Below, piece by piece: positions 2,303-6,639 of a stretch of DNA of 10,770 bases. This DNA comes from a virus. Below the pieces are notes generated by a model, which saw only the letters and a list, made by a program, of their open reading frames with translations, did not search any database and had not been told where the DNA came from. The position numbers were made by a program, and so were the translations under genes. Numbering within the stretch: the stretch's first letter is position 1; each line of letters opens with the position of its first letter. The DNA lies in IMG/VR virus record IMGVR_UViG_3300009537_002073. The stretch is one strand, 5' to 3'.

Positions 2303-2599
2303 TTAAAGTACGGCGGGAACTACATCGAAATGAAATATTTTTGAAGTGGTTACTACAGCACCTGTGGATATCACTTGATAACTCCAAGTGCCCGGCGTAT
2401 TAAGAGTTAAATCATAATAAAATACCCCAAGTCCGTCTCTGGTTATAACTCCGGGGTATACATAAGATATTGTGGCTGCATCTTTGCCGGGGCGCACCTT
2501 AATGGTTACTGTAGTAGGGTCCACTAAATTGGAATTTATATCCTTAAAGGTAGCTTTTATCCTACGAAGGTTACCTTGTATAATTTGTTCGTTGGCCAT
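2303..2599 (-). CDS. Hypothetical 98-aa beta-rich protein, translationally coupled to the giant repeat protein
   Basis: ATG 2599 overlaps the TAA stop of the upstream gene (TAATG at 2597-2601). The stop is TAA at 2303-2305. Confidence 0.7.
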   Translation of the reverse strand: MANEQIIQGNLRRIKATFKDINSNLVDPTTVTIKVRPGKDAATISYVYPGVITRDGLGVFYYDLTLNTPGTWSYQVISTGAVVTTSKIFHFDVVPAVL

Positions 2600-5500
2600 T
2601 AAGGACTTTTTGCCTCTACACTAACGGTGTATAACAGATCCTTGTCAATTTTAGAAAAATGCGCCTCCAAAAGCTCAATTGCTGCTTGATATAGAGCAGA
2701 AACTTCTATTACTAAAGAACTAAAATCCGAAGTAAAATAAACTATTATACTATCAGTTACGGCTACATTTTCATTTAAAACAACTCTAAATAGTTTCTGG
2801 ATTACCGTAGTTGCAAGATCTGTGACCACAACAGAATCGTTGATCGCCCTACCTGCATCTAAATGCCGTTGTACACTATCAGAGAGTGATATATTATCAT
2901 CAGCGGTCACAAAAATAGCTGTCTCAATTACTTCACTAAAAATTGACTCTATAGAAACAATCGAATCCGCTGCGCCTCTACTAAAATCAACTGTGGTGGC
3001 TAATAGATCTGTTAAGGCCGCGGTATCCCCTACCACCACATTAATAGCCCCGGTTACAAGTTCTCCATCCGCATTGTCTGTAACCGATATACTATCAATT
3101 ATGGTCCTAGTATAATCTAGAACTATAGATACTAAATCCGTTAAAGAAATACTATCGGACAATACACGTAAATAATCTACACTAAAAGAAGAAGTATCTA
3201 CTACAGATACTGCATCTACTATAGATCTTAAATATTCAAAATTAATTAAAACAGAATCAGTGGTAGTTATACTGTCATGTCGTGAAACGCCAAATTCCCA
3301 ATATGTAGCGTCAGCAACTACCGCCGTATCCGCTATTTCTTTTAGCAGTTCTGTCGAAGTTTTGGTTGTATCTGCAACGCTAATACTGTCATTTATACCG
3401 GGGTCAAATTCCCAACTACTTAAGTCTGTGATAGAAATCGTATCCGCTAAAACTTTAAGGAAATCTAATCCAGCCCCAGTAACATCACTAACCTCTATAG
3501 AGTCATTTATTCCTGGATCAAACTCCCAAGAAGCGGAATCTGATACTTCCGCTAGGTCCGACAAATTACGTAAATAATCTAATAAATACTGTATAGTGTC
3601 TACCGTGGATATGGTATCGGATATACCAGGGTCAAACTCCCACGACACCGTATCAATTAACGATGCTATATCACTTACATCACGTAAATAATCTACACTA
3701 GAACTAGCTAAATCTACAAGGGCGGCACTATCACTTATACTGGGATTAAACTCCCAACTAGCTAAATCGGTTACGGAGACGGTATCTGATAGTACTTTAA
3801 GGAATTCTAACCCCGCTCCCGTAAAATCAGTCAATTCCACGCTATCGGCGATAGCTCTTAAATACTCTGAATATATAGAAGTATCGTCTGTTACAGATGT
3901 AACATCTGCTAAACTCCTAGAGAAAAATATATCTAAAGTAGCGGCATCAGCGACTGCAATAGAGTCAGACGGTCCTGGGTCGAATTCCCAACTCGTTGCA
4001 TCGACCACACTTACACTATCGTTTGTAAGTCTCAGGTACTCAAAAACAAGCGTAGTAGTATCTGTTACTGCTACTATATCAGATATTCCTGGGTCAAATT
4101 CCCATGAAGCAGTATCCGATACTGAAGAGGTGTCAATTATTTCTCGTAGATAGTCGAACCCTACATTCGCTGTGTCAGTAACCTCTATAGAATCTGTAAT
4201 ACCAGGGTCAAATTCCCAAGAAGCCGCATCTGCTAAAATGACGCTATCCGCTAATGTCTTCAGATAATCGAGGGCATTAACCGCCGTATCTGTAACAGAT
4301 ACAACGTCATTTACTCCTGGATCAAATTCCCAGGATGCTGTATCCACCAACGAAACTGAATCATTTAAGCTACGTAAGTAGTCAAACGAAATTAAGGCTA
4401 AATCCACTAAGCTAATAGTGTCCGAAGGCCCAGGGTCGAATGTCCAGCTTATTGCATCAGTAACAGAGGCGGTATCGTTCACCACCCGCAAGAGTTCTGA
4501 CACTTCCAACGCGGCATCTAAATTGTCAGAAACTACTAATGTATCGTCCGGACTAGGATCAAATGTCCAACTAGTGGCATCGCTCAAACTAATAGAGTCG
4601 CTTAAAGCTCTTAAATACTCTAAGATTGGCGTATTGCTATCAGCAATAGACACCACATCTTTTGGGCTCGGATCGAACGTCCAAGACGTTACCTCGGCTA
4701 AAGATGCTGTATCAGTTATCGGTCGAACATAATTAGTATTAAAAATATTGCTCTCTGTTAAGACTGCAGAGTCTTGTAAATTTCTCCCAAAGAAGGTAGT
4801 TCTTGCTAGAGTATCAGAAACACTAGCAGTATCTTGTATCTCCTTATTAGACTGCGTTCCTCGCGCTATAGTATCTGTAACCGCTACGGTATCGGCCGGT
4901 TTCCGTAGAAACGAGGTTGTTCGGTTTATTGTGTCTGTAAGTGCAACAGTATCATTTACTGTTCTAGTTATGGCAGGAGCGGTCCACGGCCCGCGTAAAT
5001 AATCATCTGATAAATTGACTCTTAATGTACATGTTTGAGTACCGTGTGAAGCAGGTCGTCCAATCGCGCATAAGATCTCATACCTATCCCCTGCATCCCC
5101 TGCAGTCCAAGAAACACTGCCGGTGCTCGCGGCTTTAAGCCCCGTTCCTGAGAAAGCTGTTTGTGTTTGTGCTTTAGTTTCTAAATCTGCTGTAACCCCT
5201 GAATTAACCCGCGCAAAGTGCCCAACAGCTGTCCCAATTGTGCGCATTCCGTATGTTATATCTGCTCCAACTGCAGTACAATCCAATTGAGCTTCATAGT
5301 TTCCTGTTGGCCATGCTGCAGAATTTGGATTATTTGCTTGGGTTGTGAACATAGCAAATAATCTACTCTCCCCTCCAGTGATATTTGTAGAGGTTACAGT
5401 CCCAGCCGTACTAGTAGTTGTTAACGCTACCATAATATTTGAAGCGCCCGTATGCACCGTACTCGTTCCAGTGGTGTCACTCTGATAGTAAGTTATGGTC

Positions 5501-6105
5501 CCTTCAGGTACTTTAAACCTACCTTGACTTTTCTGGTCTTTAACGAGGCCAAATTGATCTAATTCAATTGGATTTAAGCCTTCAGTCCATCCTCTCCAAC
5601 CGTGCGCGGATCGCCTACTATCATGCACAGCATTCAATTCATTTGGCACCCAAATTCCATGTCTTGTAGCGCGGATTGGGGGCTTTATAAAAGCATCCCA
5701 TGGTTGAACATTCTCAGCCTTCATGAAGCGCATACGCGCAGCAACATCTTTTTGTGCATAAATCTGCTGTTCCTGCCATGTATTTATAGCTTGTCCTAAT
5801 CTTGGGTCAGGTGATAAAGGTATAAATGTCCACACCCTAGCATATTTCTCACCCTCTGGATAATCATCAGGGTCATCATTCCATATCGTGACTCTACATT
5901 CACCTCCTGGAAGGTGTTCAACAGCATAATGATCCGCCGTAAACTCAACGCCTTGAATGTTGAGTCGATGAATCCAACTAGATGTATCTGTTATTATTTC
6001 GTTGCCAGTGGGTTCTGGAAACGTAGGAAGATTAACCCAATCGCGGCTGTCAACTTCTTGCCAGTCAATCGGGTTTAATCTACTAAATTGTGTGAGGAGT
6101 TTCAC
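2599..6105 (-). CDS. Giant (1168 aa) Ser/Thr/Asp/Val-rich tandem-repeat protein, a putative fibre/adhesin-like structural protein. It has an N-terminal non-repeat domain of ~370 aa and no signal peptide.
   Basis: GTG start at 6105 with GGAG 8 nt upstream (cgtGGAGttaaacgGTG). Residues ~474-972 form ~13 units of 38 aa, consensus SWEFDPGxxDxxxVxDxx + xxxxDYLRxLxDSxSVxDxA. Flanking degenerate 19-20-aa units (xxxDTxxVTD) span ~375-1120. Confidence 0.9.
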   Translation of the reverse strand: MKLLTQFSRLNPIDWQEVDSRDWVNLPTFPEPTGNEIITDTSSWIHRLNIQGVEFTADHYAVEHLPGGECRVTIWNDDPDDYPEGEKYARVWTFIPLSPDPRLGQAINTWQEQQIYAQKDVAARMRFMKAENVQPWDAFIKPPIRATRHGIWVPNELNAVHDSRRSAHGWRGWTEGLNPIELDQFGLVKDQKSQGRFKVPEGTITYYQSDTTGTSTVHTGASNIMVALTTTSTAGTVTSTNITGGESRLFAMFTTQANNPNSAAWPTGNYEAQLDCTAVGADITYGMRTIGTAVGHFARVNSGVTADLETKAQTQTAFSGTGLKAASTGSVSWTAGDAGDRYEILCAIGRPASHGTQTCTLRVNLSDDYLRGPWTAPAITRTVNDTVALTDTINRTTSFLRKPADTVAVTDTIARGTQSNKEIQDTASVSDTLARTTFFGRNLQDSAVLTESNIFNTNYVRPITDTASLAEVTSWTFDPSPKDVVSIADSNTPILEYLRALSDSISLSDATSWTFDPSPDDTLVVSDNLDAALEVSELLRVVNDTASVTDAISWTFDPGPSDTISLVDLALISFDYLRSLNDSVSLVDTASWEFDPGVNDVVSVTDTAVNALDYLKTLADSVILADAASWEFDPGITDSIEVTDTANVGFDYLREIIDTSSVSDTASWEFDPGISDIVAVTDTTTLVFEYLRLTNDSVSVVDATSWEFDPGPSDSIAVADAATLDIFFSRSLADVTSVTDDTSIYSEYLRAIADSVELTDFTGAGLEFLKVLSDTVSVTDLASWEFNPSISDSAALVDLASSSVDYLRDVSDIASLIDTVSWEFDPGISDTISTVDTIQYLLDYLRNLSDLAEVSDSASWEFDPGINDSIEVSDVTGAGLDFLKVLADTISITDLSSWEFDPGINDSISVADTTKTSTELLKEIADTAVVADATYWEFGVSRHDSITTTDSVLINFEYLRSIVDAVSVVDTSSFSVDYLRVLSDSISLTDLVSIVLDYTRTIIDSISVTDNADGELVTGAINVVVGDTAALTDLLATTVDFSRGAADSIVSIESIFSEVIETAIFVTADDNISLSDSVQRHLDAGRAINDSVVVTDLATTVIQKLFRVVLNENVAVTDSIIVYFTSDFSSLVIEVSALYQAAIELLEAHFSKIDKDLLYTVSVEAKSP
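3190..4686 (-). repeat. In-frame tandem DNA repeat of 114-bp period (~13 copies) encoding the 38-aa SWEFDPG...DYLR units
   Basis: The Trp codon of SWEFDPG recurs on the plus strand as cca at 3298, 3412, 3526, 3640, 3754, 3988, 4102, 4216, 4330, 4444, 4567 and 4681. Spacings are exactly 114 nt except where units are 40-41 aa. The motif GGRTCRAAYTCCCA recurs at each copy. Confidence 0.9.
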
Positions 6106-6129
6106 CGTTTAACTCCACGGTGAAAAATG

Positions 6130-6639
6130 TTACGGTGTAGAGCAATCTGCGGGGGTAAGTAATCTAGCGGCAGCAACTTTTGCATTGTAGTCAGTCGCAC
6201 TGTAATCATAAGTTAACAACACAAGTTTAGAGGCTGCAATTTGTAAATCAAATAACTTAGTAAGAAGGGAACGATTTATTTCTTGTCCAAAACTTTCAGC
6301 ATCAAACCCAGACTCTTTTTGAACCCCTGGAGTCTCGTCCCTGCGTCCAACCAAAAGACCCACAGGAGTACCTCTTAAATAAAGTAAATCATTGCCGCTA
6401 AATTCAATAACATTAGCGGGGCTACTAGGATTCGGGCTTTGATGATGGAACACTTTTACAATAAGATATTGTAAATGATTAGATAATTTTTCTACATCTT
6501 TCCATAAAACTATCTGACATGTGTTATCACTGTATACAACCATAACCTGGTTTAAAGGATCGTTAGGTACCGCGTATGCCTCACTTGGAAGGGCTAAAAA
6601 AACAGAAAGTAAAAATAAAATAGAACCAATGTATTTCAC
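6130..6639 (-). CDS. Secreted hypothetical protein (169 aa) with a Sec-type signal peptide
   Basis: The N-terminus MKYIGSILFLLSVFLALPSEAYA has a positive n-region, a hydrophobic core and an AYA-V cleavage motif. GGAGA sits 8 nt upstream of ATG 6639. The stop TAA is 24 nt upstream of the giant gene's start. Confidence 0.8.
   Translation of the reverse strand: MKYIGSILFLLSVFLALPSEAYAVPNDPLNQVMVVYSDNTCQIVLWKDVEKLSNHLQYLIVKVFHHQSPNPSSPANVIEFSGNDLLYLRGTPVGLLVGRRDETPGVQKESGFDAESFGQEINRSLLTKLFDLQIAASKLVLLTYDYSATDYNAKVAAARLLTPADCSTP

Follow-up and report, generated by a model that had tools for sequence, protein, structure and literature searches.

A modular repeat protein of an uncultured tailed phage, probably a surface fibre, is genetically coupled to a methyltransferase–glycosyltransferase cassette

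Introduction

The fibres of a phage determine what it adheres to, and capsid-fibre proteins are unidentified even for some phages whose fibres have been imaged, such as 7-7-1 (PMC12796354). Here we ask what role is played by the product of a long, repeat-bearing gene in the IMG/VR virus record IMGVR_UViG_3300009537_002073, a stretch of 10,770 nucleotides that we refer to as the window. The answer we favour is that the product is probably a structural fibre on the surface of an uncultured tailed phage, built from an anchor module and a repeat shaft, placed on the capsid or neck more likely than on the baseplate, and coupled to a cassette of linked genes.

Gene structure

The fibre is encoded by a single open reading frame for 1168 aa, as the original prediction had stated and as the ORF list and translation bear out. 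The gene, its parts and its flanking signals are as follows.

6113–6116, minus strand: Shine-Dalgarno-like GGAG, 7 nt 5' of the fibre GTG (read from the sequence)
2599–6105, minus strand: whole fibre gene, 1168 aa, GTG start, TAA stop (ORF list and translation)
5506–6105, minus strand: first subdomain of the N-domain, aa 1 to ~200, mixed beta/alpha, no structural match found
4981–5505, minus strand: second subdomain of the N-domain, aa ~201–375, a jelly-roll beta-sandwich that ends in an invariant GPW
4684–4980, minus strand: five 20-aa B-type units, R-x-x-x-D-T-V-A-V-T-D, aa 376–474 (core motif map, spacing 20)
3187–4683, minus strand: 38-aa super-repeat with 12 W-x-F units, aa 475–973 (in-register alignment with the 20-aa repeats of relatives)
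2746–3186, minus strand: degenerate 20-aa units, aa 974–1120 (core motifs at aa 984, 1004, 1027, 1090 and 1113)
2599–2745, minus strand: C-terminal non-repeat tail and stop codon, aa 1121–1168 (translation and junction sequence)
2303–2599, minus strand: 98-aa ORF, the start of which overlaps the fibre stop (translation and junction sequence)

The GTG start is supported by the alignment of the fibre N-terminus with 12 relatives, which begins at residue 1, and no signal peptide was apparent on reading the N-terminal sequence. At the opposite end, the stop codon of the fibre gene and the start codon of the 98-aa ORF overlap as TAATG, so the two genes are likely to be translationally coupled. The 98-aa product is an orphan protein whose sole database match is itself, with a weak match to phrog_18294.

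The repeat shaft

Residues 376–1120 form a shaft with 36 D-x-φ-x-φ-x-D cores that lie 18 or 20 aa apart (core motif map). The shaft is rich in Asp, Ser and Thr, contains 2.8% Gly, and the GGxGxD motif is absent. Across aa 475–973, identity at a lag of 38 residues is 0.40, compared with 0.089 ± 0.013 in 1000 shuffles (z = 24.5), confirming the strong 38-aa periodicity that had been noted. The accompanying claim of a '2 x 19' build did not hold, as identity at a lag of 19 residues is 0.042, which is under background, and the real split is 18 + 20. These sub-periods come from 18-aa WEFDPG-type units (WEFDPG-x-x-D-S-I-S-V-T-D) alternating with 20-aa DYLR-type units (DYLR-x-L-x-D-S-V-S-V-x-D), and 12 W[ET]F units are present in the fibre. 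Asp is invariant at positions 9, 15, 29 and 35 of the 11 strictly 38-aa units, in agreement with the conserved Asp positions described earlier.

The units had further been called near-identical, with 'GGRTCRAAYTCCCA at each copy', and alike enough in their DNA for recombination to add or remove them. Pairwise, they average only 45% identity in protein (32–55%) and 51% in DNA (41–60%), that sequence occurs seven times rather than 13, no two units have an exact DNA word longer than 14 nt in common, and no array was reported by Tandem Repeats Finder. With DNA this saturated by substitutions, the present units are unlikely to be gained or lost through recombination. The predicted variation in fibre length is nevertheless seen among relatives, where C-terminal extensions run from 0 to ~2,300 aa.

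We defined a D-type repeat as tandem ~20-aa units that have a D-[ST]-φ-x-φ-x-[DE] core and align in register, a definition that covers the shaft through its 36 cores and its in-register alignment with the repeats of eight relatives. This unnamed repeat, represented by loci L014–L018 and L021–L045, is common among uncultured phages and also occurs behind unrelated N-termini (L014, L015, L016 and L018). In tblastn searches, the shaft matched L015 at 7e-61 and L026 at 3e-59.

That the repeat lies outside the named families, as was first proposed, is borne out by the searches. The whole fibre matched no Pfam family at E ≤ 0.1, the C-terminal 792 aa matched none at E ≤ 1 except for one chance match, and NCBIfam gave no match to the fibre; the repeat region resembled neither Adeno_shaft, Phage_fiber_2, HemolysinCabind/RTX and Collagen nor other named repeat families in Pfam or NCBIfam. 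No PDB chain was found with the whole protein by phmmer, and profiles of the N-domain, a 76-aa double unit and a 420-aa repeat alignment returned from the PDB either nothing or marginal, high-bias matches to designed helical repeats. The only library family to match the fibre significantly was phrog_12240 (E = 3.2e-9), which is without annotation and covers aa 361–474, running from the last part of the N-domain into the first 20-aa units, or ~10% of the fibre. A tblastn search of 50,697 phage records with the whole fibre found nothing, and no collection searched held a close relative of it. At BLAST sensitivity, the N-domain, the repeat and the 162-aa protein of the cassette described below are absent from cultured phages.

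The N-terminal module

Membership of the N-domain family (alignment A1) was taken as a full-length match to the 375-residue profile, from residue 1 and ending in GPW. The fibre N-domain aligns in this way, with 38–53% identity to 12 relatives and 17 invariant columns, including G372-P373-W374. The distinct, conserved N-terminal domain of the original prediction is therefore real and ends at GPW, residue 374. The profile found 703 cluster representatives among 1.84 billion (348 at E ≤ 1e-30), and the match begins at residue 1 in nearly all N-domain proteins among the matches listed. About half of the best 156 of these 703 proteins consist of the domain alone, and the remaining proteins of the best 156 have extensions of up to ~2,300 aa, mostly with 20–23-aa periods and very different in composition. 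L003 and L004 encode the N-domain as a protein of its own, with distinct fibrous proteins after it. The N-domain and the shaft are two modules, each of which is found independently elsewhere.

The structural model of the N-domain (pLDDT 88) is beta-rich and comprises two subdomains. Around half of the model, which we take to be the jelly roll, matches phage proteins with S74 chaperone, collagen or pectin-lyase domains, and the fold is common to the jelly roll and the N-terminal parts of those proteins. Fold searches and the PDB profile search revealed no likeness to solved decoration or head-fibre bases, and the known decoration folds (beta-tulip, Ig-like, OB and beta-tadpole) were not matched. 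We suggest that residues 1–375, a compact two-subdomain module ending in the jelly roll, would anchor the fibre to the particle.

Genomic context

The window and all relatives sit in tailed-phage contigs, adjoining terminase, portal and capsid genes, and the window genes have PHROG matches. This context, together with an N-terminal jelly roll whose fold is common to phage fibre-type proteins, supports the earlier proposal of a virion or particle fibre. The closest relative, L002, contains terminase and integrase genes and has the gene order of the window (enzyme, 162-aa protein, zinc-ribbon protein, fibre), with 57% identity for the enzyme and 75% for the 162-aa protein.

In L003, the capsid gene is followed by the N-domain gene and then head closure, while in L004 the N-domain gene comes ahead of the capsid, neck and sheath genes. 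L014 has the capsid gene, the cassette, the repeat protein, and then the head-tail adaptor and Neck1; in L013, the cassette follows a T4-type capsid gene; and L047 has portal and MuF genes, then the cassette and fibre. The gene adjoins the major capsid gene in L003, L004, L013, L014 and L016. Instead of following tape-measure or baseplate genes in a tail module, the genes of relatives either precede the capsid gene or come between it and the connector genes, and this position in the head module favours a fibre on the capsid or neck over a tail fibre at the baseplate. Capsid, portal and tail genes are all missing from the window, and the head-module argument therefore draws on relatives with an N-domain identity of only 36–47%; no capsid gene lies within the sequence read for the window, L002 and L019.

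The same arrangements weigh upon an alternative that we consider unlikely, namely a conventional tail fibre or receptor-binding protein at the baseplate or tail tip, with the N-domain as a tail adaptor and a distal host-recognition region on the shaft. The fibre gene of the window, L002 and L019 is the last of its operon, a position typical of tail fibres too, and the longest in the region read, yet the gene lies upstream of the capsid gene in the myovirus-type L004, far from the expected baseplate genes, and ahead of the connector and neck genes in L003 and L014. The jelly roll has its fold in common with phage proteins bearing S74 intramolecular-chaperone, collagen and pectin-lyase domains, and such domains are typical of tail fibres and spikes. 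Pfam, PHROG, NCBIfam and fold searches of the fibre revealed none of the known anchor or tip domains of tail fibres. The N-domain occurs in phages whose heads and tails are of P22-like, T4-like and other types, which would be difficult to square with an adaptor that binds one specific tail. Two further features would suit a tail fibre: the next gene in L001 encodes a BppU_N domain, known from baseplates, and the small coupled ORF downstream of the fibre could be a fibre-assembly chaperone.

Fold of the shaft

The AlphaFold model of the repeats, computed as a monomer, is all-beta with two strands per unit, and is of low confidence (pLDDT 53, pTM 0.37). The units are probably beta-structured, each with a short aromatic or hydrophobic strand (WEF or DYL) that leads through a turn into a D-S-φ-S-φ-T-D strand. 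The low confidence is compatible with an obligate oligomer, though no proof of one. Folding of the shaft would probably require oligomerisation, with a trimer most likely.

The regular monomeric beta-solenoid suggested in the original prediction was not recovered. Such a shaft, which would have 18–20 residues per coil and Ca2+ along its Asp ladders in the manner of RTX beta-rolls or the ice-binding adhesin of Marinomonas, seems improbable to us. The 18–20 residues of a unit are in keeping with coil lengths in known solenoids, and Asp is invariant at four positions of each strictly 38-aa unit, in pairs six residues apart. AlphaFold predicts beta-strands only, but it is usually confident on regular solenoids and was not so here. 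Neither the GGxGxDxUx nonapeptide nor a confident solenoid, the hallmarks of RTX-like repeats, was found, the Gly content is low, and Pfam gave no match to RTX/HemolysinCabind or another repeat family. Relatives have Glu-, Ala- or Pro-rich units in place of the Asp with the period unchanged, so it is the period that is conserved, not the Asp ladder.

The linked cassette

Upstream of the fibre gene lie four genes, two of which form the cassette.

7453–9183, minus strand: cassette gene 1, a 576-aa protein with SAM-methyltransferase, GT2 glycosyltransferase and TPR parts (Pfam Glycos_transf_2 and TPR_2 over cut-offs)
6978–7466, minus strand: cassette gene 2, a 162-aa protein, function unassigned (60–80% identity across unrelated phages)
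6658–6975, minus strand: 105-aa double zinc-ribbon protein, encoded between cassette and fibre genes (weak Pfam zinc-ribbon matches)
6130–6639, minus strand: 169-aa protein with a signal-peptide-like N-terminus, directly upstream of the fibre gene (translation)

The enzyme shares 47–63% identity among the cassette loci compared, and its catalytic-type motifs (SAM motif and GT-A Asp motifs) are invariant in nine sequences (alignment A6). The 162-aa protein has 488 homologues and was found at 25 IMG/VR loci, with no match in Pfam, NCBIfam, the PDB or cultured phages; in 23 of these 25 loci the enzyme gene is directly upstream. Homologues of the zinc-ribbon protein occupy the equivalent position in L002, L013 and L046. 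No family match was found for the 169-aa protein, nor a homologue in the related loci compared.

The shaft type is genetically coupled to the cassette, which is present in all five loci that combine the N-domain with D-type repeats and in none of the eight N-domain loci with other C-termini. Conversely, a D-type repeat protein occurs in 20 of the 23 IMG/VR loci of the 162-aa protein that have enough downstream DNA. Three cassette loci (L023, L027 and L036) have no repeat protein within 10 kb, so the enzyme could target the 162-aa protein or something else. In L046, a UDP-glucose/GDP-mannose dehydrogenase gene lies between the 162-aa and fibre genes. The linkage suggests a glycosylated fibre, in which the Ser/Thr-rich shaft may be the substrate or the partner of the enzyme and the 162-aa protein, with O-glycosylation as the most plausible modification.

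A more elaborate scheme, which we put forward only tentatively, is a dedicated maturation system in which the TPR part would read the D-S-V-S-V-T-D units and the enzyme, with its 162-aa partner, would O-glycosylate them, possibly with methylated sugars. The outcome would be glycan-coated capsid fibres with interchangeable N-terminal anchors, a phage counterpart of serine-rich-repeat adhesins spread horizontally among uncultured phages (contigs of ~16 kb to >450 kb). A non-virion accessory glycoprotein, which, like the bacterial serine-rich-repeat adhesins, would work outside the particle, leaving the infected cell at lysis or being displayed on its surface together with the cassette, is very improbable: although the cassette moves as a unit between unrelated phages with the 162-aa protein still 60–80% identical, the nearest enzyme family is labelled moron or auxiliary gene in PHROG, and a signal-peptide-like protein gene adjoins the fibre gene, the fibre itself reads as having no signal peptide, its gene is within a structural operon in every examined locus with context, and the N-domain jelly roll has the fold of phage fibre and spike proteins.

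For the structural surface fibre that we favour, the shaft would project from the particle and could provide reversible adhesion to host or environmental surfaces. The analysis defines two uncharacterised building blocks, the 375-residue N-terminal module and the ~20-residue Asp/Ser/Thr-rich shaft repeat, and neither has a match in Pfam or the PDB. Should the linkage reflect fibre glycosylation, glycosylated virions would occur well beyond mycobacteriophages, and recombinant co-expression would offer a testable system that does not require phage culture.

Comparison with known systems

The gp8.5 gene of Bacillus phage phi29 adjoins the capsid gene, and relatives of the window gene are also encoded beside the capsid gene (L003 and L004). 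The trimeric head fibre gp8.5 functions in host adhesion and not in capsid stability, and has an N-terminal capsid-binding base and a C-terminal elongated fibre of a short repeating motif (PMC7602432), the same overall architecture as that of the window fibre. In gp8.5, a beta-tulip forms the base and a helix-turn-helix supercoil the fibre (PMC7602432), whereas the window base contains a jelly roll and its shaft is predicted to be beta, Asp/Ser/Thr-rich and several times longer. The matches listed by the fold searches did not include gp8.5, and there was no sequence similarity to any PDB chain.

Triple beta-spiral shafts (adenovirus fibre, reovirus sigma1 and PRD1 P5) have two-strand repeats with a Pro/Gly turn and alternating hydrophobic residues, and an N-terminal vertex anchor. 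The WEF-DPG-ISDSISV strand-turn-strand of the window and the two strands per unit predicted by AlphaFold resemble this arrangement. However, the triple beta-spiral repeats are ~15–16 residues long and the window units 18–20, half of the window units have no Pro/Gly turn, and Pfam gave no Adeno_shaft match.

In mycobacteriophage clusters F and O, phage O-methyltransferase and glycosyltransferase genes modify virion structural proteins (PMC11600133, PMC12619734; Freeman et al. 2023). In cluster O, an O-methyltransferase gene stands ahead of glycosyltransferase genes, the products of which modify proteins of the capsid and tail tube (PMC11600133, citing Freeman et al. 2023). The window likewise links a methyltransferase-GT2-TPR gene tightly to a Ser/Thr-rich, probably structural protein. 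The mycobacteriophage enzymes are encoded by separate genes and act on the C-termini of the subunits of capsid and tail tube, whereas the window enzyme is a single three-domain TPR protein, always paired with the 162-aa protein, and its presumed target is the repeat fibre.

The fibre gene and its surroundings

The window is a complete JGI metagenome contig of 10,770 bp, the exact length recorded for the contig of origin of its 162-aa and 98-aa proteins. The long ORFs of the window lie on the minus strand in every case, and its annotated features are listed below.

Features of the window (coordinates, strand, description)
2303-2599, minus: 98-aa ORF
2599..6105, minus: fibre gene, 1168 aa, GTG start
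6130-6639, minus: 169-aa protein whose N-terminus (MKYIGSILFLLSVFLALPSEAYA) resembles a signal peptide, directly 5' of the fibre gene
6658-6975, minus: 105-aa double zinc-ribbon protein with two zinc-ribbon-like CxxC pairs, between the 162-aa and fibre genes
6978..7466, minus: 162-aa protein, 5' of the fibre gene
7453..9183, minus: 576-aa methyltransferase, GT2 and TPR protein, upstream of the fibre gene
9277-10719, minus: 480-aa protein with an MVP-shoulder domain (major-vault-protein shoulder, SPFH-like; Pfam E = 3e-15)
Downstream of the fibre gene: metallophosphoesterase

The start of the fibre gene, a GTG with a GGAG 7 nt upstream, is sound because the N-terminus of the protein matches 12 relatives in alignment, beginning at residue 1. 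At its other end, the TAA stop shares bases with the ATG of the 98-aa ORF (TAATG). A database search with this ORF returned itself as the sole match, and kinship with the BppU_N protein of the related locus L001 or with the C-terminal domain of protein P0001 was rejected (BLASTP E = 0.7-0.9, no homologues); its product may act in assembly as a chaperone, or may form a distal subunit. The stretch at 1550-2300 holds only short ORFs (89, 119 and 153 aa) that overlap on both strands, with slightly raised GC and no tRNA or Rfam matches. Scans of the window as a whole for Rfam families and tRNAs were also without matches, and a promoter and terminator scan gave signal at or below chance.

The 169-aa protein has no family match and no homologue in any related locus. 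Homologues of the zinc-ribbon protein occupy the equivalent place in three loci (L002, L013 and L046). Among 50,697 phage records, the 480-aa MVP-shoulder protein matches only three metagenome records of huge phages, unannotated and 462-735 kb long, and neither tblastn of the fibre protein nor megablast of the entire window gave any match to this set. The exact fibre protein is absent from a 15-billion-protein collection; its neighbours P0157 and P0277 are present there. A metagenome scan for near relatives that might differ in repeat copy number returned only proteins with 31-53% identity in the N-domain (residues 1-375), none with WEFDPG units, a genome-contig scan found zero, and a literature search on the fibre motif strings gave no relevant match.

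The shaft is built from an unnamed repeat of about 20 residues

We mapped 36 D-x-φ-x-φ-x-D cores between residues 385 and 1113 of the fibre protein, and the motif map divides the shaft as follows.

Segments of the shaft (residues, description)
376-474: five 20-aa units
475-973: 18-aa units S-W-E-F-D-P-G-x-x-D-S-I-S-V-T-D, alternating with 20-aa units
475-973: 20-aa units D-Y-L-R-x-L-x-D-S-V-S-V-x-D, alternating with 18-aa units
Ending at about 1120: degenerate 20-aa units

The original prediction was right that the feature is real and that its 38-residue periodicity is strong, with an identity at lag 38 of 0.40 over residues 475-973 compared with 0.089 +/- 0.013 in 1000 shuffles (z = 24.5). 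It had described about 13 near-identical units of 2 x 19 residues that could be gained or lost by recombination, and these points were not supported. Identity in the same region is only 0.042 at lag 19 and 0.18-0.20 at lags 18 and 20, and the 38-aa unit is therefore composed of 18 + 20 residues. There are 12 W-x-F units within residues 475-973, and the DNA motif that had been placed at each copy occurs seven times, not 13. The Asp residues at unit positions 9, 15, 29 and 35 are invariant in all 11 strictly 38-aa units, but the units are otherwise far from near-identical, with mean pairwise identities of 45% (32-55%) for protein and 51% (41-60%) for DNA. The longest exact DNA word common to two units is 14 nt, and Tandem Repeats Finder detected no array inside the fibre gene. 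The unit duplications are old and substitution-saturated, which makes recombination between the present units unlikely.

The shaft, rich in Asp (13%), Ser (13%), Thr (11%) and Val (11%) with 2.8% Gly, gave no match to Pfam or NCBIfam, to the PDB by sequence or by profile, or to cultured phages by tblastn, in keeping with the earlier view that the repeat is not of a named family. It weakly matches phrog_12240, a family without assigned function. Marginal PDB matches to designed helical repeat proteins were set aside as artefacts of periodicity and composition. Aligned with the 20-aa repeats of relatives, the units of the window fall in register, and their WEF/DPG half pairs with the E-x-x-F-x-R half of those repeats. 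This fibre is not alone in alternating long and short units, as L039 has a 20 + 17 pattern with E-T-S-F-P-Q-D, and a single S-W-T-F-E-P unit is present in L014.

The regular β-solenoid proposed at the outset was not recovered by AlphaFold: residues 554-973, modelled with the alignment of relatives, were all-β with two short strands per unit, at low confidence (pLDDT 53, pTM 0.37). This result is weak evidence against a simple solenoid formed by a monomer, and it is compatible with an obligate oligomer. The pattern of strand, Pro-Gly turn and strand in the window units is reminiscent of triple β-spiral shafts.

The N-domain defines a family with variable C-termini

Among 5.8 billion proteins, a word-indexed search recovered only 13 relatives of the fibre protein, which have the first ~375 residues in common and diverge completely beyond. 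The distinct N-terminal domain of ~370 residues that had been proposed is confirmed. The C-termini of these relatives carry D-S-V-S-V-T-D repeats in some and are Glu-rich, Ala/Thr-rich or Pro-rich in others, and some relatives have lectin-like insertions. A profile from the N-domain alignment (A1) searched against 1.84 billion cluster representatives matched 703 proteins, of which 348 reached E <= 1e-30, and nearly all among the matches listed begin at residue 1. About half of the best 156 of the 703 consist of the N-domain alone (370-430 aa); the remainder of these 156 have extensions, reaching total lengths of up to 2,691 aa, with periods mostly of 20-23 aa. The N-domain is also a stand-alone protein followed by separate fibrous proteins in L003 and L004. 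In L020 (6329-9529) it is split, with a 195-aa ORF forming the first subdomain and P0011 beginning at the jelly roll, which is either a frameshift or a genuine two-gene arrangement.

AlphaFold with A1 gave a confident model of the N-domain (pLDDT 88, pTM 0.88) comprising two β-rich subdomains. Three fold searches with the N-domain returned only generic jelly-roll matches in the PDB, and Foldseek against the PDB added nothing. Foldseek against BFVD matched about half of the model, taken to be the jelly roll, to proteins of uncultured Caudovirales (E = 1e-7 to 1e-5). Their S74 intramolecular-chaperone, collagen-repeat or pectin-lyase domains mark these as fibre or spike proteins.

Probable position of the fibre on the particle

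Wherever context exists, the fibre genes of relatives sit in the head module. The N-domain gene lies between a P22-like coat gene and head closure in L003, and precedes capsid, Neck1, sheath and tape measure genes in L004; in L014 a capsid gene is followed by the enzyme and 162-aa genes, the repeat protein, and a head-tail adaptor and Neck1, and in L047 portal and MuF genes are followed by these two genes and the fibre. On this gene order, a fibre of the capsid or neck is the favoured reading. Pointing the other way, the fibre gene ends the operon in the window, L002 and L019, a gene for a BppU_N protein comes next in L001, and the proteins related through the jelly roll are typical tail-fibre or spike proteins.

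A putative glycosylation cassette accompanies the shaft repeat

A ~580-aa methyltransferase-GT2-TPR enzyme followed by a 162-aa-type protein (here, the cassette) is present in the window, L002, L013-L019 and L021-L047, and a protein with D-type repeats (tandem ~20-aa units with a D-[ST]-φ-x-φ-x-[DE] core) is usually next. The closest relative, L002, has the order of the window, with the enzyme (57% identity), the 162-aa protein (75%), the zinc-ribbon protein and the fibre, and its fibre region adjoins terminase and integrase genes. L019, L046 and L047 are arranged similarly. Across the enzyme family a SAM-binding motif stays invariant, as do Asp motifs of the GT-A type; the invariant Asp residues of the enzyme include D209 and D233/D238. 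L046 has a UDP-glucose/GDP-mannose dehydrogenase gene (1925-2722) between its 162-aa and fibre genes, consistent with a role of the cassette in sugar modification.

The 162-aa family (488 matches) is unusually conserved, with homologues of 160-170 aa that are 60-80% identical across phages with unrelated head modules: its gene lies beside T4-type portal, protease and gp23 genes in L013, and beside Phage_portal, MuF and S78 protease genes in L014-L018. It has no match in Pfam, NCBIfam, the PDB (profile search included) or cultured phages, and profile-profile comparison with the N-domain gave nothing. A tail-tube protein, suggested by its place in L014 and L015, was rejected because such identity spans phages whose tail modules are also unrelated and because no tail genes follow it in L002 and L019. 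Three members (P0224, P0246 and P0260) have N-terminal extensions of 40-60 residues with a hydrophobic, Arg-rich, signal-like segment, which may be mis-called starts overlapping the end of the enzyme gene.

Scanning IMG/VR with the 162-aa protein yielded 25 loci, whose contigs range in length from 16 to 452 kb. The enzyme is directly upstream in 23 of the 25, and a large protein with ~20-aa D-type repeats (tblastn E 1e-13 to 3e-59) is found in 20 of the 23 loci having enough downstream DNA. The best autocorrelation lag of these proteins is 20 or 40, with L039 (lag 37) the sole exception. None of the 25 has the N-domain of the window; the N-termini present instead fall into several unrelated types. 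Conversely, the cassette is present in all five loci that combine a window-type N-domain with D-type repeats, and in none of the eight N-domain loci with other C-termini (L001, L003, L004, L005, L006/7, L008, L009 and L020), a difference with a one-sided Fisher probability of ~8e-4 by our own arithmetic on a small, non-independent sample. The linkage of the cassette is thus to the shaft repeat rather than to the anchor.

The gene thus encodes a predicted phage surface fibre, comprising a newly delineated N-terminal module and an unnamed, widespread ~20-aa shaft repeat. Of most interest is that the gene is genetically coupled to a putative glycosylation cassette; the fibre may be glycosylated, and its location on the virion is inferred.

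Comparison with known systems

For some phages, capsid-fibre proteins are unidentified despite imaged fibres (PMC12796354). The head fibre of phi29, gp8.5, has a capsid-binding N-terminal base and a C-terminal repeating fibre with an adhesion function (PMC7602432), and the fibre of the window is alike in this architecture of N-terminal base and C-terminal repeat, although the folds differ. According to two papers that each refer to Freeman et al. 2023 (PMC11600133 and PMC12619734), a methyltransferase and a glycosyltransferase are linked to virion proteins in mycobacteriophages, a precedent from which the window differs in the organisation of enzymes and targets.
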